Shown here: positions 15,908 to 31,764 of the stretch, piece by piece
Layout: each line of letters starts with the position of its first letter
Numbering within the stretch: the first letter of the stretch is position 1
From: an uncultured Methanosarcinales archaeon
GTDB taxonomy: Archaea; Nanobdellota; Nanobdellia; Woesearchaeales; DATDXC01
DNA: 63,948 nt
Assembly: GCA_964510025.1 (NCBI GenBank)
Contig: CAZDZV010000001.1
Coordinates: 1-63,948 of the forward strand
Direction: 5' to 3'
Translations under genes and position numbers: made by a program
Notes under the pieces: model-generated
The model's database searches: none
What the model was told of the DNA's origin: nothing
Seen by the model: only the letters and a program-made list of their open reading frames with translations

Positions 15908-17560
15908 CTAGATATTTTCTCTAATTATAGATATCAGAAGCACAAATCCCAGCACTACAGCTGTTAAGAACGCAAGAAAAGATATCCATGACATATTGAG
16001 GATTTTGGGTTCTATGCTCACGGTCAGAGCACCTCCAATAATCAGCGCCGCTATTACAACGCTGTATGCTATCCTGTTGCTGGACCTGTCTATCTCAACT
16101 GACAGCTTCTTTATGTCGCTATCATGCATGTCTATGCTAAACTTGCCTTCCTGTATCTTCTTCAGTGCCTTTTTGGTCTCTCCTGGAATTTCCTGAAAAA
16201 AACCCACTAAATTCAGCAGGGTTCTTTTAATTTCTTTCCGCATGCCTGAGATATTGGTTCTGTTTTTTATTAATTTTTCTATAAAGGGCTCGGCTTTTTC
16301 GATAAATTTCAAATCTGGTGCATACTCAATAGCTATGCCTTCCAGCTCCACTATGGTCTTGCCGAAAAGGACAAAATTACGAGGTATCCTGACATGATGC
16401 TTCAAAGCGATGCTCAATACCTTCTCCAGAACAAGACTGATCCGGGCATCCTTTATCGAACCCCTTTTCATAGGCTCTATAGCCTGCTTTATGTCCTCCC
16501 TCAGGCTTTGCTGATCCAGCTGCTTGTCAAACATCCCCATTTCCAAGAATGTTTCAATGATAGAATCAACATCCTGCTCGACTATGCCATAAAATAGCCT
16601 GATTGACTTCTCCCTTAAAGAATCATCAAAATAACCCACAATTCCAAAATCAACCAAAGCCAGTACATTGTTCTTCATCACCAAGATGTTGCTGGGATGA
16701 GGATCTGCATGAAAAAAGCCGTGAATAAAAACTTGGGTCAGAATCATATCAAATCCATTCTTCATAATCTCATCCATATCATACCCCTTTTTCCCTTTGA
16801 TCAGATCCAGCCTGTGAAGCTCTACACCATCTATGTACTCAAAGACAACCATGCGTTTGCCTGAATAATCACCATACACCTTCGGAACCTTCACAGTCCG
16901 GGCGCCTTTAAAGTTACTATAAAATCTTCTGGCGTTATTTGCTTCATTTAAGAAATCAAGCTCCTTGGCAGTCCATTGCCTGAATTCCTCAATCAATCCG
17001 GTCGGCTTATATTTCCTTATCCTCTCTGAATGCTTTTCAAGCTTCTTCGCCAGGAATCCCATTATCTCGATATCCTGCTGCATCAGGTCCTTGACTCCGG
17101 GCCTTTGCACCTTAACTGCTACCAGTGTCCCGTCTTTTAGTCTTGCCTTATGGACCTGAGAGATAGAGGCAGATGCTATCGGCTTACGGCTGAAAGAAGA
17201 AAACACCTTGTCAAGCGGCCTTGAGAGCTCCTCTTCAACTGTCCTTCTGGCTTCTTCAAAGGGAAATGGCTTGACAGAATCCTGAAGCTTCCCCAGCTCT
17301 TTTGCATATGCCTTTGGTATAAGGTCTGGCCTGAGACTTAATATCTGGCCCAGCTTGACAAAGGTAGGACCAAGCTTCTCAAGCGTTTTCCTAAGCCTTA
17401 CTTCAGGAGGCAAAGTGGTCTTTCTTGGATGCTTCAGGGTAAGAAAATGCATGACGCTGACTTTTTCAACAAAAAAACCAAAACCCTGTTCAATGAAGAC
17501 ATCCAAGATATGCCTAATCCGGGATAGGTCTCGCATATTTTTCCTCAGACTGTCAAACAT
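15908..17560 (-). CDS. ABC1/UbiB/AarF family atypical kinase
   Basis: LGPTFVKLGQ, IASASISQVH, VAVKVQRP, FFHADPHPSN, DFG. Confidence 0.92.
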   Translation of the reverse strand: MFDSLRKNMRDLSRIRHILDVFIEQGFGFFVEKVSVMHFLTLKHPRKTTLPPEVRLRKTLEKLGPTFVKLGQILSLRPDLIPKAYAKELGKLQDSVKPFPFEEARRTVEEELSRPLDKVFSSFSRKPIASASISQVHKARLKDGTLVAVKVQRPGVKDLMQQDIEIMGFLAKKLEKHSERIRKYKPTGLIEEFRQWTAKELDFLNEANNARRFYSNFKGARTVKVPKVYGDYSGKRMVVFEYIDGVELHRLDLIKGKKGYDMDEIMKNGFDMILTQVFIHGFFHADPHPSNILVMKNNVLALVDFGIVGYFDDSLREKSIRLFYGIVEQDVDSIIETFLEMGMFDKQLDQQSLREDIKQAIEPMKRGSIKDARISLVLEKVLSIALKHHVRIPRNFVLFGKTIVELEGIAIEYAPDLKFIEKAEPFIEKLIKNRTNISGMRKEIKRTLLNLVGFFQEIPGETKKALKKIQEGKFSIDMHDSDIKKLSVEIDRSSNRIAYSVVIAALIIGGALTVSIEPKILNMSWISFLAFLTAVVLGFVLLISIIRENI

Positions 17561-20564: not shown

Positions 20565-21350
20565 ATGAAAAGAACACCTGAAAGTAAACTGATGACAGGT
20601 AGTTCAGTATCATGTTACACCAGGGAGGGTGAAAAATACCTATCTGCTGTCTACCTCAGGCAGATACAGATATTATCTGCTTATATCGGCAGAGGAAAGT
20701 TTGAGATTCTCGATGTAGGATGCGGCAACGGTATAATCGACCGCCAGCTAGTCAGGATATTTCCAAATATCAGTATCACTGCCATAGATCTTTCAAAAGA
20801 CATGATAATCAGGGCCAGGCTTGAGTCGCTTGATCATGCAGATTACAAAAGAATACAATATCTGCATAGAGACATATCTAAAATCAGGAAAAAATATGAT
20901 ATGGTCATCTCCTCGTTTGTGCTTCACCATACGCAGGATGAGGAGGATGCTGTCTTTTTAGCAAAAAGCATGAAATCTAAGCTCAAGAAAGAAGGCTGCT
21001 TATACCTATTTGATTTCTACCGGCCAACTAAAAGGATAGGAATGAAAATTTTTCTGGCTGTATTCTCCAGGATAAACAAGACACTTCTAGCAGATGGGAC
21101 CAGATCACTAGCAGCTGCTTACAATCTAGAGGAGCTGTCTGAAATCCTGATGAAAAGCCGATTAGAAGCTGACAGCTTCATGTACTGGCCATTTGCCTAT
21201 TGCCAGATGATAATAAAAGGAAGCTGCCGAGCCAAGCCTATAAGGCTTAGCGAGATACCATTGTACAAGAAAACCAGAAAAAAGGACAGGCTGCTGGCCA
21301 GATGCTCAGCTCTGATGAACATGCATTATATACCACATAAAACTATTTAA
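20565..21350 (+). CDS. Class I SAM-dependent methyltransferase (small-molecule type)
   Basis: ILDVGCGNG, AIDLSKDM, SSFVLHH. Confidence 0.85.
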   Translation: MKRTPESKLMTGSSVSCYTREGEKYLSAVYLRQIQILSAYIGRGKFEILDVGCGNGIIDRQLVRIFPNISITAIDLSKDMIIRARLESLDHADYKRIQYLHRDISKIRKKYDMVISSFVLHHTQDEEDAVFLAKSMKSKLKKEGCLYLFDFYRPTKRIGMKIFLAVFSRINKTLLADGTRSLAAAYNLEELSEILMKSRLEADSFMYWPFAYCQMIIKGSCRAKPIRLSEIPLYKKTRKKDRLLARCSALMNMHYIPHKTI

Positions 21351-21396
21351 ATGGCAGCATTTCCCTTAGGACAACAAGTTGATGGGATAAATAAAA

Positions 21397-22488
21397 GTGG
21401 AATACGCTGTGGTGGGCCATCCTTCAAGCATCGAACATCTTGAGAGGATAATGCTGACTAAGAATCTAGGTAGTATTACGGCTGACAAGAAGTTTCTTTT
21501 GAATCTATACAGAAGCCTGCCAAAGTTTCTTAACAAGCAGAAGAGGAAGCTTCTGCTGAAATTCTTTGAGCTATCCAATGCAATCAAGACATGCGACATA
21601 AGCAACCTGCTCTCCAAAACAGGGCAGAAGATAGATGGCTTTTTTATCACCTATCCGGTCATCCCCGGACTTACCAACCTGACAAGCGAGCAGAAGCTGG
21701 AGAAATTAAAGTCTGTATGCCATGTTGCGAAAAAATATGGCGCCAAGATTGTAGGACTGGGCGCTTTTTCATCGATAGATGACGGCAACCAGGGAGCATT
21801 ATTGGCCAAATATTCCGATGTTGCTGTAACGAACGGAAATACACTAACAGCTGCTGCTACGCTGCAAGGCATCTATAAATCTGCAGAGAGACTGGGCTTA
21901 ACCCTGAAAGAGGCAACTGTAGCGATAATCGGCGCGTCCGGTGATGTGGGCAGCGGCTGCGCAAGAGTCCTATCAAACAAAGTAAATGAACTTATCCTGA
22001 CAGCCAGGAATGTAGTAAGATTAGAGGAATTTAGCAGGACAATAGAAAAAAACAGGTCCAAAGTGAACTATACAAATGACAATCTTAAGGCAATTAGCCG
22101 GGCAGATATAGTGATAACCTGCGCAAGCGGCATAACCAGATTCATCAATGCAGATGCCTTTAAAAAAGACGCTATTGTCTGCGATGTGGGCTTCCCTAAA
22201 AATGTCTCTTATGAATACTCCAAAAGAAAGGACCTTTTCGTCTTTTCAGGGGGGCTTATGAAACTTCCTTCTGAAGTGGAATTTGGGGTAGACCTGGACC
22301 TTCCGAAAAATGTGGTCTATGGATGTTTTGCAGAAGCAATGGTACTGGCTTTTGAAAAAAGATTTGAAAATTTCTCTATCGGCAGAGGCAGCATAACCTC
22401 ACAAAAAATTGACTATATATGGAATAAGGCAAAGATAAATGGATTTGAACTTGCTCCTTTCTCAAGAGGAAAACAGAAAATATCATGA
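21397..22488 (+). CDS. Acyl-ACP/acyl-CoA reductase-like NAD(P)-binding protein (cyanobacterial AAR/COG5322 family)
   Basis: VGHP, IVGLGAFSSI, TNGNTLT, VAIIGASGDVGS, CDVGFPKNV, YGCFAEAMVL (AAR catalytic-Cys motif), FSIGRGSI. Confidence 0.8.
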   Translation: MEYAVVGHPSSIEHLERIMLTKNLGSITADKKFLLNLYRSLPKFLNKQKRKLLLKFFELSNAIKTCDISNLLSKTGQKIDGFFITYPVIPGLTNLTSEQKLEKLKSVCHVAKKYGAKIVGLGAFSSIDDGNQGALLAKYSDVAVTNGNTLTAAATLQGIYKSAERLGLTLKEATVAIIGASGDVGSGCARVLSNKVNELILTARNVVRLEEFSRTIEKNRSKVNYTNDNLKAISRADIVITCASGITRFINADAFKKDAIVCDVGFPKNVSYEYSKRKDLFVFSGGLMKLPSEVEFGVDLDLPKNVVYGCFAEAMVLAFEKRFENFSIGRGSITSQKIDYIWNKAKINGFELAPFSRGKQKIS

Positions 22489-24212
22489 AAGTAAGTGAGC
22501 TGATTGCCAGGTTTATAGAAAAAAATAAGATACGGTTTGTATTTGGCATTCCTGGAACGCATATTCTTCCTTTTGTTACAGCCTTTTATAACTCCAGAAC
22601 CAAGCTGATTCTGACCAAACATGAAAGTGGGGCCTCTTTCATGGCTGACGGCTATTCAAAGGTCAGCGGCAGGATCGGGGTGTGCTTTGGCACGACAGGG
22701 CCCGGTGCAACCAACCTAATCACTGGCGTAGCCACATCGTACATGGATTCTATGCCTATTCTTGCTTTAACCGCTGCTGTCCCTACCAAGTTCTTTGGAA
22801 AGGGTGCTCTACAGGAAGGAACCGGCATAGGAAGGTCAGTAGGGCATCTGGATATATTCAAAAGCATAACAAAACATAATGAATGTGTCATGGATCCAAA
22901 AGACATCAAAAAGTCTCTGGAGAAATCCTATAATCTTATGCTAAGCAGAAGGCCAGGGCCGGTCCATCTTGACCTTCCTGTAGATGTCCAGAACAGCAGG
23001 GTTAGAAATTCAAGCTTCAGTCTTAAGAAAGACAAACAAGAAATATCCAGAAAAATCCTGCGCAGAACAGCTAGGATCCTGGCCAAGGCAAAAAATCCTG
23101 TAGTCCTAGCTGGTGGCGGGGTTGTATTTTCGGATGCGTCATATCTGCTCAGGGATTTGTCAGATACCCTTAGAATGCCTGTGGCCACAACTGTAAAGGG
23201 AAAGGGGGCTATCGATGAGGACTCTGAATTGGCCTTGGGTACAGTGGGGCTGTACGGATCAAGCGTTGCAAACTCTTTCATCAGGGATAAGATAGATGTT
23301 ATGCTCGCTTTGGGATGTTCATTTCATGAATTTTCAACCCAGTGCTATGATGAGAGAATCAAGCCCAAGAAACTAATCCATGTGGATATAGACGAAGATG
23401 AGCTGAACAAAAACTATAAGGCACACATCAGCATAAGCGCTGATGCAAAGGAATTTTTGAAATCGCTTCTGACGGAAATTAAAGGTATCAAAGCAGACAG
23501 AAGCCCTATCATAAGCCGTATAAAACATCTAAAAAAGAAGTATAGGTATTTTAATGAAAAGATGATGCATTCAGATGCGGTTCCAATAAAGCCACAAAGA
23601 GCTATGAAGGAGCTTAGAGAGATATTGCCCAGAGATACAATAGTCTTCTCTGAAAGCATAATGTGGACTCAAAGATATTTCAAGGTTCATGAGCCTAAAA
23701 CACACATCGTGGGCACCGGGCTTGCCTCCTTAGGGTACGGAACTGCAGCCTGTATAGGGGGAAAGTTGGCTGCACCAGACAAGCCGGTCATATGCATTTG
23801 CGGCGATGGGGGCTTCCAGTTTATGGCTATGGAGGTTAAAACAGCTGTAACCTACGAGGTGCCAGTAGTCTGGATAATACTGAATAACTCGAGATTTGGT
23901 GTGATATACAACGCTCAGAAAAAGCTTTATAACGGAAGATTCCTATGCTCTGAACTGGAGAATCCTGATTTTATGAAATTTGCTGAGTCTATGGGGGCTG
24001 TCGGCTCAAGGATCAGGAAGCCATGTGACATCAAGGCAGCTGTCAACAAAGCACTGAAGAAAAAAAAGCCAGCCGTAATAGAAATCATTATAGATCCAGA
24101 TGAGGCTCCACCGAACAAGTTAAGAATTCTAGAGCAGGTTAGAGCATCGAAAGTTGATATCAACTATCTTAAGAACCTAAAGGGTTTTGGAAGCCTGTTA
24201 AGAGAAAAATGA
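22485..24212 (+). CDS. ThDP-dependent enzyme, acetolactate-synthase-like
   Basis: VFGIPG, KHESGASFMADGY, TTGPGATN, GDGG...NN ThDP motif; no ilvN/ilvC nearby. Confidence 0.88.
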   Translation: MKVSELIARFIEKNKIRFVFGIPGTHILPFVTAFYNSRTKLILTKHESGASFMADGYSKVSGRIGVCFGTTGPGATNLITGVATSYMDSMPILALTAAVPTKFFGKGALQEGTGIGRSVGHLDIFKSITKHNECVMDPKDIKKSLEKSYNLMLSRRPGPVHLDLPVDVQNSRVRNSSFSLKKDKQEISRKILRRTARILAKAKNPVVLAGGGVVFSDASYLLRDLSDTLRMPVATTVKGKGAIDEDSELALGTVGLYGSSVANSFIRDKIDVMLALGCSFHEFSTQCYDERIKPKKLIHVDIDEDELNKNYKAHISISADAKEFLKSLLTEIKGIKADRSPIISRIKHLKKKYRYFNEKMMHSDAVPIKPQRAMKELREILPRDTIVFSESIMWTQRYFKVHEPKTHIVGTGLASLGYGTAACIGGKLAAPDKPVICICGDGGFQFMAMEVKTAVTYEVPVVWIILNNSRFGVIYNAQKKLYNGRFLCSELENPDFMKFAESMGAVGSRIRKPCDIKAAVNKALKKKKPAVIEIIIDPDEAPPNKLRILEQVRASKVDINYLKNLKGFGSLLREK

Positions 24213-27200
24213 AATATTATCTTGGAATCGATATAGGGTCGGTGAGTGTGAAATCCGCAGTCATTGATTGCAAAGGTAAACTGCTCAATAAACAGTATAG
24301 CCGGTCGGAAGGACAACCTTTGAAAAAACTTACAGAGCAGCTTTCTAAACTAGGCATCCAGAAGGCGGATAATATTGTTGCGACTGGAAGCGGTAAAAAA
24401 TTATTAAAGGATATTCTTGGAATAAGGACAGAGAATGAAATCGTGACAAACATGGTAGCTGCGTACCATATTGACCCGGATGTCAGGACTGTTATCGAAA
24501 TAGGGGGGCAGGATTCAAAGCTGATTTTTATTGAGGATGGCCCAACCCTGAAAGACCATTCAATGAACGAGGTTTGCGCAGCCGGCACAGGCAGCTTTCT
24601 GGACCAGCAAGCAGAAAGGCTAGGCATCTCTGTAAAAGATTTTGGAAAGCTTGCGCTTAGATCGAAAAATCCCGCGAATATTGCCGGCAGGTGCACTGTC
24701 TTTGCAAAAACTGATATGATACACCTGCAGCAGGAAGGCTATGCCAAGGAAGATATTGTGAATGGTCTTTGCTATTCTCTTGCAAGGAACTTCATAGCTG
24801 GGCTTGGAAAAAACAGGGAGATAAAGGACAAGGTTTTTTTTCAGGGAGCAGTAGCCGCTAACAGGGGGGTTGTGAGGTCCTTTGAATCCCTGTTGCAGAA
24901 GAAGCTGATAATACCTAAGCATTATAGGATTATGGGGGCTTTTGGAAGCGCTTTGATAGCGAAACAAAAATCCACGGGATACACGATAAAAGATGTTATA
25001 CAGAAGATAAATGAATATATTAAAAAGGACAAAGGCTCTGGACACAGATTACCCAGGTTCAGAAAATATGTCGGAAACACGGCCATCAAGATAGCTGCAA
25101 CCAAGGATAAGGGGTGCTACCTTGGTGTGGATGTTGGATCGATCAGTATTGACATTGTTGTGATCAATAGATCAAAGGAAATCCTATACCAGAAATACTA
25201 TTACACAAAAGGAGAGCCGCTCAGGGTGATTAAGCAGGCTTTGTCTGAGCTTGGAAGGCGGGATTTTAAAATCAAAGCAGCTGGAATCACCGGTTCCGGC
25301 AGATATCTGTTTGGAGAGTATATTGGGGCCGACATAATTAAGAATGAGATAACATGCCAGGCAAGAGCTGCCTATGAAGTTGACAGTAAGATTGACACGG
25401 TCATAGAGATAGGGGGGCAGGATTCAAAGTTCATAAGGCTGAAGAAAGGGAAAGTCATCAATTTTGAGATGAACAAGGTTTGCGCAGCCGGCACGGGCAG
25501 CTTTCTGGAGGAACAGGCCAAAAGGCTGGATGTGGACATTAAAGACTTCGGCAGGCTAGCATTCAAATCTCAAAATCCCCTGGATTTAGGGACAAAATGC
25601 ACTGTTTTCATGGAGTCAGATGTTATCCATTACCAGCAGCAGGGCCATAGAAAAGAAGACATTATTGCTGGACTTGCTTACGCAATAGCCAGGAATTATC
25701 TTGACAAAGTTGTCATCAACAGGAAAATTGGCAACCATATAATTTTTTTAGGTGGAGTTGCCTCTAATCGATCAGTTGTATCAGCCTTCAAAAAATTGCT
25801 AAAAAAGAGGATTACGGTGCCACCAATTAACAAGGTTTCTGGCGCTTATGGCGCTGCCCTGATTTCTTGTGAATCCAATGTAGCTAAAACCAGGTTCAAT
25901 GGATTTGAGCTGGATAAGATTCCTTATTCAACTTCCCATTTCATCTGCGATCGTTGCATAAATCGCTGCAACATAGAAGAGATCAAAATAAAGGGCAATT
26001 CTTTCTATTTTGGCAGCCTTTGCGGCAGGTATGATAAGAAGAAAGATGAATCAAAGAAACTCCCAAATTATTTTGAACTACATAATAAGGCATTATTCGA
26101 TTGTATAAATAACAGCAATAAAAATAAAAAAGAGATAGGTATCCCAAGAATTTTTCTTTTCTATGATTATTTTCCGCTATGGGCGGGATTTTTTAACAAT
26201 CTAGGTTTCAACATAGTAGTATCTGATGAGACCAACCGTAAGATGTCAGATTTTGGATTAAGAAGGGCAGTAGTCGACACATGTTTCCCTGTAAAATCTG
26301 TGTATGGACATATAAAAAATCTAATAGATAAGGGAGTAAAAAAGATTTTCTATCCTTCTTTTGTTGAGCTGGAGCCTGATAAAGGTCTGAAACGAATAGT
26401 ATGCCCCTATAAATCAACTGTGCCACAATTTGTTTATTCTGCTCTTGGAACTAAGATAATCAGTCCTGTAGTTTCTGATGAATCTGGATTGAATGATATA
26501 CTAATCCAAACAGGCAAAGACCTGGGATTTAAGAGAAGCAAGGTCATAAAAGCTTATGAAGCTGCCCTTAATATTGTATCAGATTACAGAAAAAAAATCA
26601 AAAAGCTAAGAGAAGATATCGACATCGCTAAGTATGAAAAAATCGTCATAGTCATGGGTAAGAGATATAATCTTTATAATAGACTAAACAACCTAAATCT
26701 GGCCCACAAATTCATGATGAAAGGAATCCTCCCATTACCTATGGACATTCTTCCTTTAGAGAATCTCAGCCTATCACATAGGTGGAGGGATCTCGTATGG
26801 AAGGAAAGCCAGGACATTATCAAAGCTGCCAGTTTTATCAATAAAAAAGCTAACTTATTTCCTGTATTTGTCACGAATTTTGGCTGCGGCCAGGATTCTT
26901 TTCTTGAAAAACACCTGGAAAAGATATTCAAGGATAAACCATATGTCAGCCTTGAGATAGATGAGCATACAGCAGATGCCGGAATCTTAACAAGGATAGA
27001 GGCCTTTATAGACACACTTGAGAATAAGCATACTGAATCAAGGTATAATCCTTATGCCTATGACGCAAAAAAACTTTCCAGAGGGAAAACCTATTTTATC
27101 CCCAATAATGCTGATAATTTTGTAGCGATTAAAACTGCATTAGGGGCATTAGGCTACAAGGCAGAGATGCTGCCCAGGGGGGATATGCAATCTTTTTCTA

Positions 27201-28234
27201 TGGGCAGCAAATTTTCTTCAGGAAAAGAGTGTTTAGCATACATATTTGTGCTTGGGGACCTTCTTAAGCTTACTAACAAAAAAGGTTTTGATCCCAAAAA
27301 CGCTGCATTTTTTCTAGCTGCGCATGATCATTGCCTTGCCAACCAATATCCTGCTGCCTATAAAAATATTCTCGGGGAACTAGGTATAGACCTGGATATA
27401 GTAACTGCAAGGATATATCCTGAAAAGGATGAGGTAAGAGAGATACTTGGATTAAGATGCATGAGAATATTTTGGAATGCTTGGATCTCTATAGACTATA
27501 TGCACCGGCTTTATCATGAACTAAAAAAGGGAAGTGATATGGAAAGGGAATACAAAGACTATCTTGAAAAGATGAAAAAAGCAAGGACTGTAAGTGACAT
27601 CTTAAATCTAACAAGGTCAACCATAGATTCATTCAATAGACTTAAGAAAGACAAGAAGAAAAAGCCGATAATCGCCTTAGTAGGAGAGCCCTATGTACTA
27701 TTCAATGAAAATGCAAACAGCAACTTAATCAAACAGCTTGAGGACTTGGATTGTGAGGTGTGGCTGCCCCCACATATGTCTGACTATCTGCGTTTTATAG
27801 AATTCAAAAGAGCGTGCTTATCTTCTAGGAAAAGACAGCTAAGGGCAGTATTGGATAACATTAGGTCTAAGGTAGCGGAGAAAGATGAAGAAAGGATAGC
27901 CGCCCTTTTCAAGACATCATTATGTAATTTTCCAGAACCGACCTTAGCGGAATTATTCAGATATGCTGAGAAGTACATATCTGACAAGCATGATCCTCTG
28001 ACTGTTTTTACAGTTTCAAAGACTGTTGATTTTATTAATAAAGGAGTTGATGGAATAATCAATGTTATGTCCCACCATTGCCTGGTCAACTACTCGGCGA
28101 CTGCAATATTAAAGAGCATAGTGGCAGAGCGCGGCACGCCGATAATAGATATGATATTTACTGGCCAGCAGGATACGCATGTGCAGAATAGGTTAGAGGC
28201 CTTTGTCTACCAGGTTAAGCAGAAATATTCTTAA
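24209..28234 (+). CDS. Fused 2-hydroxyacyl-CoA dehydratase activator-type protein (two ASKHA activator + two reductase/DUF2229-like domains), PlsA/Ger-like
   Basis: GIDIGS/GVDVGS, two copies each of IEIGGQDSK and CAAGTGSFL, RCTVF/KCTVF, IGIPR...CFPVK, FGCGQDS, IDEH...TRIEAF and terminal NRLEAF. Confidence 0.88.
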   Translation: MKYYLGIDIGSVSVKSAVIDCKGKLLNKQYSRSEGQPLKKLTEQLSKLGIQKADNIVATGSGKKLLKDILGIRTENEIVTNMVAAYHIDPDVRTVIEIGGQDSKLIFIEDGPTLKDHSMNEVCAAGTGSFLDQQAERLGISVKDFGKLALRSKNPANIAGRCTVFAKTDMIHLQQEGYAKEDIVNGLCYSLARNFIAGLGKNREIKDKVFFQGAVAANRGVVRSFESLLQKKLIIPKHYRIMGAFGSALIAKQKSTGYTIKDVIQKINEYIKKDKGSGHRLPRFRKYVGNTAIKIAATKDKGCYLGVDVGSISIDIVVINRSKEILYQKYYYTKGEPLRVIKQALSELGRRDFKIKAAGITGSGRYLFGEYIGADIIKNEITCQARAAYEVDSKIDTVIEIGGQDSKFIRLKKGKVINFEMNKVCAAGTGSFLEEQAKRLDVDIKDFGRLAFKSQNPLDLGTKCTVFMESDVIHYQQQGHRKEDIIAGLAYAIARNYLDKVVINRKIGNHIIFLGGVASNRSVVSAFKKLLKKRITVPPINKVSGAYGAALISCESNVAKTRFNGFELDKIPYSTSHFICDRCINRCNIEEIKIKGNSFYFGSLCGRYDKKKDESKKLPNYFELHNKALFDCINNSNKNKKEIGIPRIFLFYDYFPLWAGFFNNLGFNIVVSDETNRKMSDFGLRRAVVDTCFPVKSVYGHIKNLIDKGVKKIFYPSFVELEPDKGLKRIVCPYKSTVPQFVYSALGTKIISPVVSDESGLNDILIQTGKDLGFKRSKVIKAYEAALNIVSDYRKKIKKLREDIDIAKYEKIVIVMGKRYNLYNRLNNLNLAHKFMMKGILPLPMDILPLENLSLSHRWRDLVWKESQDIIKAASFINKKANLFPVFVTNFGCGQDSFLEKHLEKIFKDKPYVSLEIDEHTADAGILTRIEAFIDTLENKHTESRYNPYAYDAKKLSRGKTYFIPNNADNFVAIKTALGALGYKAEMLPRGDMQSFSMGSKFSSGKECLAYIFVLGDLLKLTNKKGFDPKNAAFFLAAHDHCLANQYPAAYKNILGELGIDLDIVTARIYPEKDEVREILGLRCMRIFWNAWISIDYMHRLYHELKKGSDMEREYKDYLEKMKKARTVSDILNLTRSTIDSFNRLKKDKKKKPIIALVGEPYVLFNENANSNLIKQLEDLDCEVWLPPHMSDYLRFIEFKRACLSSRKRQLRAVLDNIRSKVAEKDEERIAALFKTSLCNFPEPTLAELFRYAEKYISDKHDPLTVFTVSKTVDFINKGVDGIINVMSHHCLVNYSATAILKSIVAERGTPIIDMIFTGQQDTHVQNRLEAFVYQVKQKYS

Positions 28235-29647
28235 TTTTTTCCAGGCTATCAGATATTGCCATGATGGTGTTTTGCTGCCCATAAACCTTAACAAGGATTC
28301 TGCAATTGGGCGAAGTGTATTCTGAAGCAGGGTGAGCCTCGTTGTGCTTAAGGACAAGATATTTGAATTATATCTTATAAGCTCTGATATCCTCTTTTCT
28401 ATGTAATGGGAACTAATTGATCCAGAATGGTAGAAGACAGGATGCAGAAGGTCAGTATCTCTGGACATCATTCCCTCTTTAACAGCTAAATCAGCGAGTT
28501 CAGTACCCTCATATATTCTGATACCTGCTACAGTCACAATCAACTGGTTCTTTGGAAGCTGATTGATAAAATCGATTGTTTCTTCAAACGTTTTTTTGGA
28601 CTCATTCGGGCCGCCGAACATAAAAAACCACACTATATTTAGTGTGGAATTCTCGAGCAAATTCTTTGCATGTATGATGTCTGATTTCCTGAATCCTTTT
28701 CTTAAACCATCGATAACTGGCTGTGATGCAGATTCCGGCGTGATATAGATTTCATTGAATCCGGCCTTTTCTAATAAGAAAATAAGCTCTTTAGTAACAT
28801 ACTTTGGATTAATCCCCATTGTAGAGAAATTGGCCCTTATGCCCCTTTTAATTATCTGCCTGCATATTTTTATTGCGTGCTCTAATGGGAAATTAAACAC
28901 ACTATCAGTAAACTCAACATTCTTAATTCCAGTATATTCGATTAACCTAGATATATCATCAACTACTTGTTTCGCTGGCCTCAACCTGATTTCTTTACCC
29001 TCAATCTTGTTATAAGTACAGTATACGCAGTTAAAGCTGCAACCTCTTTTTGTCTGTATGCCAATTTTTCCAGATCGGGCATATTTTCTTACATTGATAA
29101 AACGATACACATCGGAAAAATTTATCTTAGTTAGGTCTTTGACTCTGGCAGTATCATTCAAGACAATTTTGCCATCTTGTTTATATACCGCCCCCTTTAT
29201 TTTTGAAAGGTCCTTATTTCTTTGCAGGGTGTCTATAAGCTCATTCAGGGATTCCTCGCCTTCTCCACAGATAGCATAGTCCAGGTCAAGATATTCAAGA
29301 ATCTTGACAGGACTAACGCCCACTGCTGAGCCACCGATTATCATGTCTGCTTCTGAGCATTTTTTGATTGTCTTGATTATTCTTTCCTTTATTTCGTTTA
29401 AATAAAAATATGGTCTAAGATAGTCTGCGCTATCTATGTTCCTTATGCCGATGCATATGTAATCAGGCTTGAAGGCAAGAATCCTTTTCTTGATTGCTTT
29501 TTCAGGATTATTTTCAAAAGTAAGATCCAAGAAGCTTACTGTATAGCCTTTAAGACTGGATGCTACAATACAAAGCCCAGTCGGCATTACAGGATATGGC
29601 TCTTTCTCTAGGTTAGAATTAATAAATAATACTTTCATTTTATTCAA
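28193..29647 (-). CDS. Cobalamin-binding radical SAM protein (lipid-biosynthesis/TsrM-like N-terminus)
   Basis: EPYPVMPTGL, IGIRNID, GGSA, GEGE, TKRGCSFNCVYC (CX3CX2C), FMFGGPNE. Confidence 0.88.
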   Translation of the reverse strand: MNKMKVLFINSNLEKEPYPVMPTGLCIVASSLKGYTVSFLDLTFENNPEKAIKKRILAFKPDYICIGIRNIDSADYLRPYFYLNEIKERIIKTIKKCSEADMIIGGSAVGVSPVKILEYLDLDYAICGEGEESLNELIDTLQRNKDLSKIKGAVYKQDGKIVLNDTARVKDLTKINFSDVYRFINVRKYARSGKIGIQTKRGCSFNCVYCTYNKIEGKEIRLRPAKQVVDDISRLIEYTGIKNVEFTDSVFNFPLEHAIKICRQIIKRGIRANFSTMGINPKYVTKELIFLLEKAGFNEIYITPESASQPVIDGLRKGFRKSDIIHAKNLLENSTLNIVWFFMFGGPNESKKTFEETIDFINQLPKNQLIVTVAGIRIYEGTELADLAVKEGMMSRDTDLLHPVFYHSGSISSHYIEKRISELIRYNSNILSLSTTRLTLLQNTLRPIAESLLRFMGSKTPSWQYLIAWKKLRIFLLNLVDKGL

Positions 29648-30023
29648 TCCTGGACGGTTTTACTTCTATTATTGGGAGACTAAGGATCAGCATACCTGTC
29701 TTCTTGTCGATAAATGCAATCTTTCCGCCTCGTGCAAAATATGTTCTTACAATCTTTTTCTTTATTCCGTTAACTACATCCTTATCATGAATGGTATATT
29801 GGCCTGTTCGGATTGGTCCTATGTAGCAGCCCAGAATAACTGCTCTTTTTGGAGTGATTAGTTCTGCTCTTTTGGGCTTCGGATCTATACCTGGCACCCA
29901 TACGCAAGGAGGATCCAAAGGATAAATCCAGAATCTGGTAAATCCAGACCGTAGCGAACCTTCTGTCAGCTCAATACAGTACCTAAATTCCTTAGTTGAG
30001 GGGTAGAAGTATCTGACAGTCAT
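29640..30023 (-). CDS. Hypothetical protein
   Basis: 127-aa ORF overlapping both neighbours in operon fashion. Confidence 0.6.
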   Translation of the reverse strand: MTVRYFYPSTKEFRYCIELTEGSLRSGFTRFWIYPLDPPCVWVPGIDPKPKRAELITPKRAVILGCYIGPIRTGQYTIHDKDVVNGIKKKIVRTYFARGGKIAFIDKKTGMLILSLPIIEVKPSRIE

Positions 30024-31080: not shown

Positions 31081-31764
31081 ATGATTATGCCAGATGAGGT
31101 CCTGGATTCCTTGTATACAGGACTAACCCTATACAACCGACCAGACTTTGAGATGCCAACCAGATTTGGCAGCTTGGCAGACCTAGCTTCCCAAGATTTT
31201 CTTGCAGCACAGAAGCAGCTTGACGCATTAGCACAAGAAAGACCGCATCCGCATGAGTCTTTTCGAACCTATGGCGCTGACATGGTTGTTTTTTACAGTG
31301 ATGGTACTGTGGATAAATGTCTTAAGAATGAAAGGTTCAGGGACGGATTATCCTATCAGGAATTATACTTAAGAACCTACCTGCCAGCTGGACACAGACT
31401 TCATGTCGTTGCAGCAGAAAGGAAGAGGGAAAAAGAAAGGCTGAATGGGCAGCTGGATATTGGTATATATGTAACAAATGAACATGGCCAGCTGACTTTC
31501 CAAGATAGTTTCACGTACTCAACAAGCAGAAGGTCATCATACGTTGGGCTGTTATGCGCCCTTGTCAGCAGGACCATAATAAGGGTAAAATATAATCCTG
31601 CTGCAATGGCTGCTGCTGGATGCAGCATACTCGGAATAGGACTCAATGGGCGTGCAAGCAGAGCTATTAGCATGGCTTTAAAGGGTGATGCTATCAGAGA
31701 CTTAGATGCCCATAAACCTACCAGAAGATTTCTGCAGAATGAGAGGCATCAAGTGTTAAGATAG
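31081..31764 (+). CDS. Hypothetical protein
   Basis: 227-aa ORF after an AT-rich TATA region; no recognisable motif. Confidence 0.6.
   Translation: MIMPDEVLDSLYTGLTLYNRPDFEMPTRFGSLADLASQDFLAAQKQLDALAQERPHPHESFRTYGADMVVFYSDGTVDKCLKNERFRDGLSYQELYLRTYLPAGHRLHVVAAERKREKERLNGQLDIGIYVTNEHGQLTFQDSFTYSTSRRSSYVGLLCALVSRTIIRVKYNPAAMAAAGCSILGIGLNGRASRAISMALKGDAIRDLDAHKPTRRFLQNERHQVLR

Follow-up and report, generated by a model that had tools for sequence, protein, structure and literature searches.

The window analysed here is a stretch of 63,948 nucleotides from a DPANN archaeon of the order Woesearchaeales (contig CAZDZV010000001.1, positions 1 to 63,948). Between porB and the lrp-cutA operon it carries five enzyme genes, and the conserved unit among them is three genes, not five: a thioester reductase resembling acyl-ACP reductase (AAR; ACP, acyl carrier protein), a thiamin diphosphate (ThDP) carboligase and a fused iron-sulphur (Fe-S) enzyme of the PlsA/Ger family. 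A first-pass annotation of this DNA had proposed an acyl-processing island built of all five genes. For the middle three this proposal is supported, but not as a five-gene pathway, since the outer two (a methyltransferase and a B12-binding radical SAM (S-adenosylmethionine) enzyme) were not found beside the module elsewhere. The AAR-ThDP-Ger module consists of known parts in an arrangement not found described, is rare and crosses domains, and was likely acquired from anaerobic bacteria. No description of it was found in the literature searched, which took in few subscription papers; the homologue lists of PMC13159169 may include its Ger-like clade.

Recurrence of the module was noticed in Planctomycetota. 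In two genomes (G401, locus L045, and G412, locus L264) an SRPBCC gene is followed in one run by the AAR, ThDP and Ger-like genes, and in a third (G402) the SRPBCC-AAR-ThDP series reaches the contig end and the best Ger-like gene opens another contig. Of the five families whose co-occurrence was to be searched for, these three recur together, but neither the methyltransferase nor the radical SAM subfamily was found beside the module; the methyltransferase occupies the position where the bacterial modules carry the SRPBCC gene. A close ThDP orthologue was present in 3 of 25 genomes of one Planctomycetota class, and the same three were retrieved from 251 genomes of the phylum sample. The nearest AAR (55% identical) and the nearest Ger-like protein (52% across the region searched) are both listed with a longest contig of 24,765 bases and likely come from one locus, a fourth copy of the module. 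Bacterial AAR loci were also scanned more widely, with an alignment in which Omnitrophota fusions weighed heavily; of 90 confirmed loci 80 were retained, many of them lying on short contigs and none carrying an archaeal label, and the neighbour labels come from representatives. A ThDP homologue occurs in seven of these 80 loci, distributed over four phyla, and a reductase of the size of an SRPBCC fusion in 65. A second metagenome scan gave no AAR neighbour among the 80 loci that it listed in its turn, plasmid searches returned distant PigE-like and generic ThDP matches only, and Atlas searches generic families only.

The Ger-like protein of the window holds two PF01869 domains followed by PF09989 and a weak PF06050. 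This is the B-B-D order which, according to the accessible text of PMC13159169, defines Ger and is conserved in all tested alkyl-ether producers. Two PF01869 domains before PF09989 and conserved Fe-S cysteines are likewise described for Ger (Tmari_0479) and PlsA/PlsR in the accessible parts of PMC13159169 and PMC12838417, and Ger homologues in Woesearchaeota have already been reported in the former. In our alignment 14 cysteines are invariant across 16 rows, the Fe-S ligands among them being kept; the reductase half has no PDB match by sequence. Unlike Ger and PlsA, the window protein belongs to a module-specific clade and is translationally coupled to the ThDP enzyme and the thioester reductase. 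In the last domain of the module proteins GPCRFGQY and CMPG are replaced with the cysteines kept, relative to homologues which have not themselves been tested as Ger (the comparison holds no tested Ger sequence), and such replacement around intact ligands may point to a changed substrate. Support for the module clade was 95/95 at full length (12 rows, four near-redundant ones having been dropped), 96/97 for the activator half and 99 in a FastTree of 39 rows; the clade was recovered despite the opposite compositional bias of its members. A grouping with the remaining Ger-like homologues from the order was rejected by approximately unbiased (AU) tests (p 7e-68 and 7e-54).

Other Ger-like genes occur in the same genomes and in relatives. 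The archaeon itself (G000) has a second, split PlsA-like pair, made of a DUF2229 protein and a single activator (C9:1056-2899, L230), and G402 carries a second, conventional paralogue. In the order genome G138 a lone Ger-like gene (L212:10749-14909), accompanied by a divergent TrmB-type regulator, encodes a protein 39-41% identical to that of the window and outside the module clade.

BbmA is the nearest solved relative of the ThDP enzyme, by sequence in the PDB (8x3x, 369 bits, compared with 286 for acetohydroxyacid synthase (AHAS) and 142-151 for 2-hydroxyacyl-CoA lyases) as well as by fold, where BbmA occupied Foldseek ranks 1-5 at 35-36% identity (model pLDDT 78). Glu47 and the GDG motif are retained, and GKGALQE is common to this enzyme and the BbmA/CsmA/CybE synthases. 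It differs from these synthases by a three-residue deletion at IVFSES and by its surroundings, where there is a reductase neighbour but no furanolide synthase or coenzyme A (CoA) ligase. Among 150 ThDP representatives the deletion (IVFSES[I/V]xW) is found in three: the window enzyme, one module member and their sister. Identity as a biosynthetic AHAS (IlvB) was considered and rejected: the score against TIGR00118 is 471 bits, below the cut-off of 538, there is no ilv context, and SFHEF stands where the two ilvB copies of the genome have the arginine motif RFSDR/RFSNR. In AHAS this arginine motif binds the carboxylate of the acceptor. As both ilvB copies, which keep it, are located in a near-complete ilv/leu cluster elsewhere (C10:37248-57174, from open reading frame (ORF) sequences), the window enzyme is not the AHAS of the cell.

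The reductase gave its top NCBIfam match with the N-terminal part of PigE (152.6 bits) and its best PDB match with AAR (6jzq, E 1.3e-30). With cyanobacterial acyl-ACP reductase it has in common the fold family, the Rossmann motif and the catalytic cysteine; Cys310 (YGCFAEAM) aligns to that residue (FACFAEAM) and does not vary in any of the 18 rows. It is, however, well under the TIGR04058 cut-off (144.4 vs 449.7 bits), ADO is not among its neighbours and the genome has no match for ACP (PF00550). The pairing of a ThDP carboligase with an AAR-like thioester reductase domain bearing a catalytic cysteine is known from PigD/PigE (PMC8341465). In contrast to that system, the window has no aminotransferase domain, its reductase is free-standing (363 residues), the ThDP enzyme is of the BbmA type and the third enzyme is an anaerobic Fe-S protein.

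Within the archaeal order the block is lineage-restricted, as judged from sparse, partial matches and differing neighbours, and its composition is nonetheless ordinary. In 400 genomes of the order besides the host (200 for the methyltransferase) AAR matches were found in 12, all partial (best E 1e-23), Ger-like matches in 35, many of them incomplete or split (five of these genomes are unpublished), and radical SAM matches in nine (one unpublished), at most 34% identical; the methyltransferase was matched in 2 of 201, own genome included. Within 1.5 kb of the 38 Ger-like or radical SAM loci of the order (six from unpublished genomes) neither AAR nor ThDP is matched. The neighbours of porB differ in G001 and G138, and in G004, of the same family, a homologue of ORF127 (the 127-residue gene after cutA) follows lrp-cutA and is itself followed by an unrelated convergent gene. 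An exact empty site was not seen, porB and ORF127 being never adjacent in the relatives examined. In G034 and G054 short AAR-like genes of a different clade (L218:6482-7369 and L219:6487-7350) are embedded in clusters with many B12 radical SAM genes.

The host is archaeal, with GatD and GatE above cut-off, and the proteins of two genomes of the same family are labelled Nanoarchaeota/Nanoarchaeia. The premise that its lineage generally lacks de novo lipid synthesis fails here, for the same contig encodes acyl-CoA and glycerol-3-phosphate (G3P) acyltransferase genes. At 92-105 kb there are FabZ-like, two thiolase, 2-oxoacid oxidoreductase, FabG-like and acyl-CoA dehydrogenase genes, electron transfer flavoprotein (ETF), two PlsC and GpsA. 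The operon region as a whole, outside the window (C1:92302-112400, L229), combines ACP-free acyl-CoA genes and PlsC/GpsA, with biotin carboxylase genes beside. In the genome, which is 97.7% complete, PlsC is matched four times and no match was obtained for ACP, HMG-CoA reductase or UbiA/DGGGPS; the single PcrB match covers 52 positions in a HisF-like ORF. As the host makes acyl-CoA and has no ACP match, acyl-CoA is the likely substrate class.

On this basis a pathway can be proposed, tentatively and with less than even confidence, in which acyl-CoA is converted to an aldehyde, the aldehyde to an acyloin, and the hydroxyl is removed by ATP-driven radical chemistry; we infer every substrate and product in it. 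In the first step the AAR-like enzyme would reduce a fatty acyl-CoA to the aldehyde, because this is the chemistry of AAR and PigE (PMC8341465). In the second the ThDP enzyme would join the aldehyde to an acyl unit derived from a 2-oxo acid, forming a long-chain acyloin, as is suggested by ThDP carboligase chemistry and the lost AHAS arginine motif. 2-Hydroxyacyl-CoA dehydratases work by a ketyl mechanism; the Ger-like enzyme, for which an alpha-hydroxyketone would be a fitting substrate, would likely in the third step strip the hydroxyl by ATP-driven one-electron chemistry, leaving a long-chain ketone or enone. In its favour, this route accounts for the coupling of the three genes as well as for the alterations in the reductase domain, and alpha-hydroxy carbonyls are suited to ketyl chemistry. 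In a broader formulation, possible but slightly less likely still, the module would be an undescribed way of making long-chain ketone or non-glycerol building blocks of lipids anaerobically, with a Ger-family enzyme retooled to deoxygenate an acyloin and plugged into the ACP-free, bacterial-type lipid synthesis of the host.

A number of observations weigh against acyloin deoxygenation or against the common origin of its three genes. In PigD/PigE the ThDP step comes before reduction (PMC8341465), BbmA-type enzymes join two 2-oxo acids and not an aldehyde according to the accessible part of PMC12395478, and the AHAS arginine motif is missing in BbmA too. The diacyl-G3P pathway of the host supplies an ordinary Ger substrate. 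In the tree of the reductase half the module clade also includes a non-module protein (G403a), IQ-TREE gave the window ThDP enzyme no firm place, and in the AAR tree the window gene, likewise without a settled position, is not joined to the Planctomycetota genes (AU p 0.09). The three Planctomycetota module genomes are kin, only one of the 80 bacterial AAR loci holds a Ger-like gene, and the window module is without the SRPBCC gene of the bacterial copies, PF03364 having no match in the genome.

The main rival reading, somewhat unlikely in our estimation, is a working Ger/PlsA enzyme converting ester bonds of the host diacyl-G3P lipids to alkyl or vinyl ethers, with AAR and ThDP enzymes supplying or recycling fatty aldehydes or building an unusual acyloin or diol backbone which is then acylated and etherified. 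The B-B-D order seen in the tested alkyl-ether producers speaks for such a role, and so do GpsA and the four PlsC matches of the host and the PlsC-type neighbour present in 45 of the 80 bacterial AAR loci. Against it stand the separate clade of the module proteins and the changes in their last-domain motifs. Neither a reductase nor a carboligase is required by a plain Ger, that of G138 standing alone, and the ordinary job may be covered by the conventional paralogue of G402 and the split C9 pair of the archaeon.

A prodigiosin-like order of reactions, leading to a small molecule, is unlikely. Here the Fe-S enzyme would dehydrate a 2-hydroxyacyl thioester (or the ThDP enzyme couple two 2-oxo acids), the ThDP enzyme extend the thioester by an acyl unit, and the AAR-like enzyme release an aldehyde, possibly a signal. 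PigD/PigE offers a precedent (PMC8341465), and in NCBIfam the reductase matches PigE best. Branched-chain 2-oxo acids are made by the host through the ilv/leu cluster on C10, and kinase or response-regulator genes accompany 61 of the 80 AAR loci, in L064 and L073 directly after AAR-ThDP. The block in the window, on the other hand, has no sensor, aminotransferase or CoA ligase, the sole AMP-binding enzyme of the genome is an acetate-CoA ligase, and none of the three functions was seen directly beside the Planctomycetota modules.

Decidedly unlikely is a single pathway of all five genes, in which the two outer enzymes (SAM methyltransferase and B12 radical SAM enzyme) would add methyl groups to the core product, even though both outer genes abut the core and have few counterparts in relatives. 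The radical SAM enzyme is best matched by TIGR04072, labelled lipid-biosynthesis-associated, over almost the whole profile and with CxxxCxxC present. Unlike that family it scores below the cut-off (336.2 vs 360 bits) and has no adjacent fatty-acid synthase genes. In 5 of the 80 loci a different B12 radical SAM gene is found near AAR, and another is situated 2.3 kb past the G412 module, which would allow non-orthologous replacement; the proteins encoded beside AAR are distant, 22-26% identical to that of the window and separated by a 100/99 branch, and are not orthologues. The module genomes hold radical SAM matches of only 27-32%, on other contigs, and the closest relative (53%) is listed with a 251-kb contig, not with the 24,765-base one. 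The gene is on the opposite strand to the core and coupled to ORF127. It was probably acquired separately, onto the lrp-cutA-ORF127 transcript. No NCBIfam model reaches its cut-off with the methyltransferase, which has no match in the 80 bacterial AAR loci at E<=1e-5 and three weak ones at E<=0.01, and is probably accessory or unrelated to the core. Both outer genes thus probably stand outside it.

One-carbon chain editing is very unlikely. The ThDP enzyme would be a 2-hydroxyacyl-CoA lyase/synthase making 2-hydroxyacyl-CoA from an aldehyde and formyl-CoA, with Fe-S dehydration and a finish by acyl-CoA dehydrogenase/ETF, which the host has (or the reverse, an anaerobic alpha-oxidation). The solved lyases, however, score far below BbmA, and the Foldseek listing (ranks 1-50, with gaps) shows none of them. 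Least probable by far is that unrelated acquired genes came together by chance or that the assembly is chimeric, which for the three core genes is by now largely refuted: gene trees meant to reveal unrelated origins put the Ger-like proteins in one clade and left the window AAR and ThDP enzymes without a firm placement, but the gene order recurs in Planctomycetota, the ThDP deletion is shared and the reads have no joints.

The coordinates of the five enzyme ORFs (Table 1) agree with the ORF list, and the families initially assigned to them were confirmed by profile and structure-database searches. ATGA overlaps tie the middle three genes at 22485-22488 and 24209-24212, as described before, and the methyltransferase starts 4 nt downstream of the porB stop. 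The initial gene list was right as to the five ORFs and overlooked ORF127, between cutA and the radical SAM gene. As ORF127 has an ATGA overlap with cutA and the radical SAM ATG comes 1 nt past the ORF127 stop, lrp-cutA-ORF127 and the radical SAM gene are coupled; the latter is convergent with the Ger-like gene, and their 3' ends overlap by 42 nt. The TATA-like TTTAAAT is where it had been placed, but it is no promoter evidence, because it contains the methyltransferase stop codon TAA and is a common 7-mer in the window (14 observed, about 22 expected). Promoter and terminator scans of the block stayed at chance level, and no transmembrane stretch is present in any of the island proteins.

Table 1. 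Features of the block between porB and lrp-cutA (window positions)
Feature	Position	Strand	Remark
Class I SAM methyltransferase, 261 aa	20565..21350	+	Pfam Methyltransf_12/25
TTTAAAT	21346..21352	+	Overlaps methyltransferase stop codon; promoter role not supported
AAR/PigE-N-like NAD(P)H thioester reductase, 363 aa	21397..22488	+	Core module gene 1
BbmA/CybE-type ThDP carboligase (alpha-hydroxy-beta-keto acid synthase type), 575 aa	22485..24212	+	Core gene 2
Fused PlsA/Ger-family ATP-dependent activator and Fe-S reductase/dehydratase, 1341 aa	24209..28234	+	Core gene 3
B12-binding radical SAM enzyme near TIGR04072	28193..29647	-	Likely start ATG 29638
ORF127, 127-aa gene of lrp-cutA operon	29640..30023	-	Native; no Pfam match

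The comparison with the flanks which had been suggested placed GC content, its third-codon-position value (GC3) and codon use of the five genes within the range of the genome. A compositional island or mobile-element ends were consequently rejected, composition being ordinary and no block-edge terminal repeats occurring among those listed. A chimeric assembly, initially envisaged, is ruled out by even read depth over island and flanks with no joints; in three runs (one possibly the source) of a single study of microbial mats, contig pieces span porB-methyltransferase, methyltransferase-AAR, AAR-ThDP-Ger, Ger-radical SAM and radical SAM-cutA-lrp.

Several neighbouring and bacterial loci deserve mention in their own right. 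Two ORFs without a Pfam match (29640-30023 and 31081-31764) are kept around lrp-cutA in G004. An ABC1/UbiB-like atypical kinase gene (15908-17560, minus strand) is divergent from the por operon, and at 40935-45524 genes for an alpha/beta hydrolase, GT4, GT1-like, PlsC-type acyltransferase and GT8-like proteins stand together, a possible glycolipid cluster. In Chloroflexota, AAR-ThDP loci have an acyl-AMP ligase upstream; the cassette (L074:4357-12102, L076, L078) comprises acyl-AMP ligase, ThDP, SRPBCC and AAR genes, and in L074 a glycosyltransferase and an SDR-like ORF come next. Since these loci carry ligase-ThDP-SRPBCC-AAR, a link to the 1,2-diol lipids of Thermomicrobium, the pathway of which is not known according to the accessible text of PMC2615216, was considered; it is unsupported, 3 of 151 genomes of the class sample being matched, all at loci already known. 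In Omnitrophota (L017:7864-14698 and similar) PlsC, an SRPBCC-AAR fusion and sometimes a B12 radical SAM gene precede a seven-transmembrane (7TM) histidine kinase, and the conserved PlsC/SRPBCC-AAR/7TM kinase set is apparently an undescribed lipid or signal cassette.

For DPANN biology the gain is a specific, putatively acyl-modifying module in a genome which also encodes bacterial-type lipid synthesis and in which searches for archaeal isoprenoid ether enzymes gave no match. PlsA/Ger proteins are routinely taken as a marker of ether lipids, and a clade tied to a reductase and a carboligase, its last domain being changed, suggests other chemistry in some of its members, for which the Ger-like proteins of the module offer a small, expressible test set.

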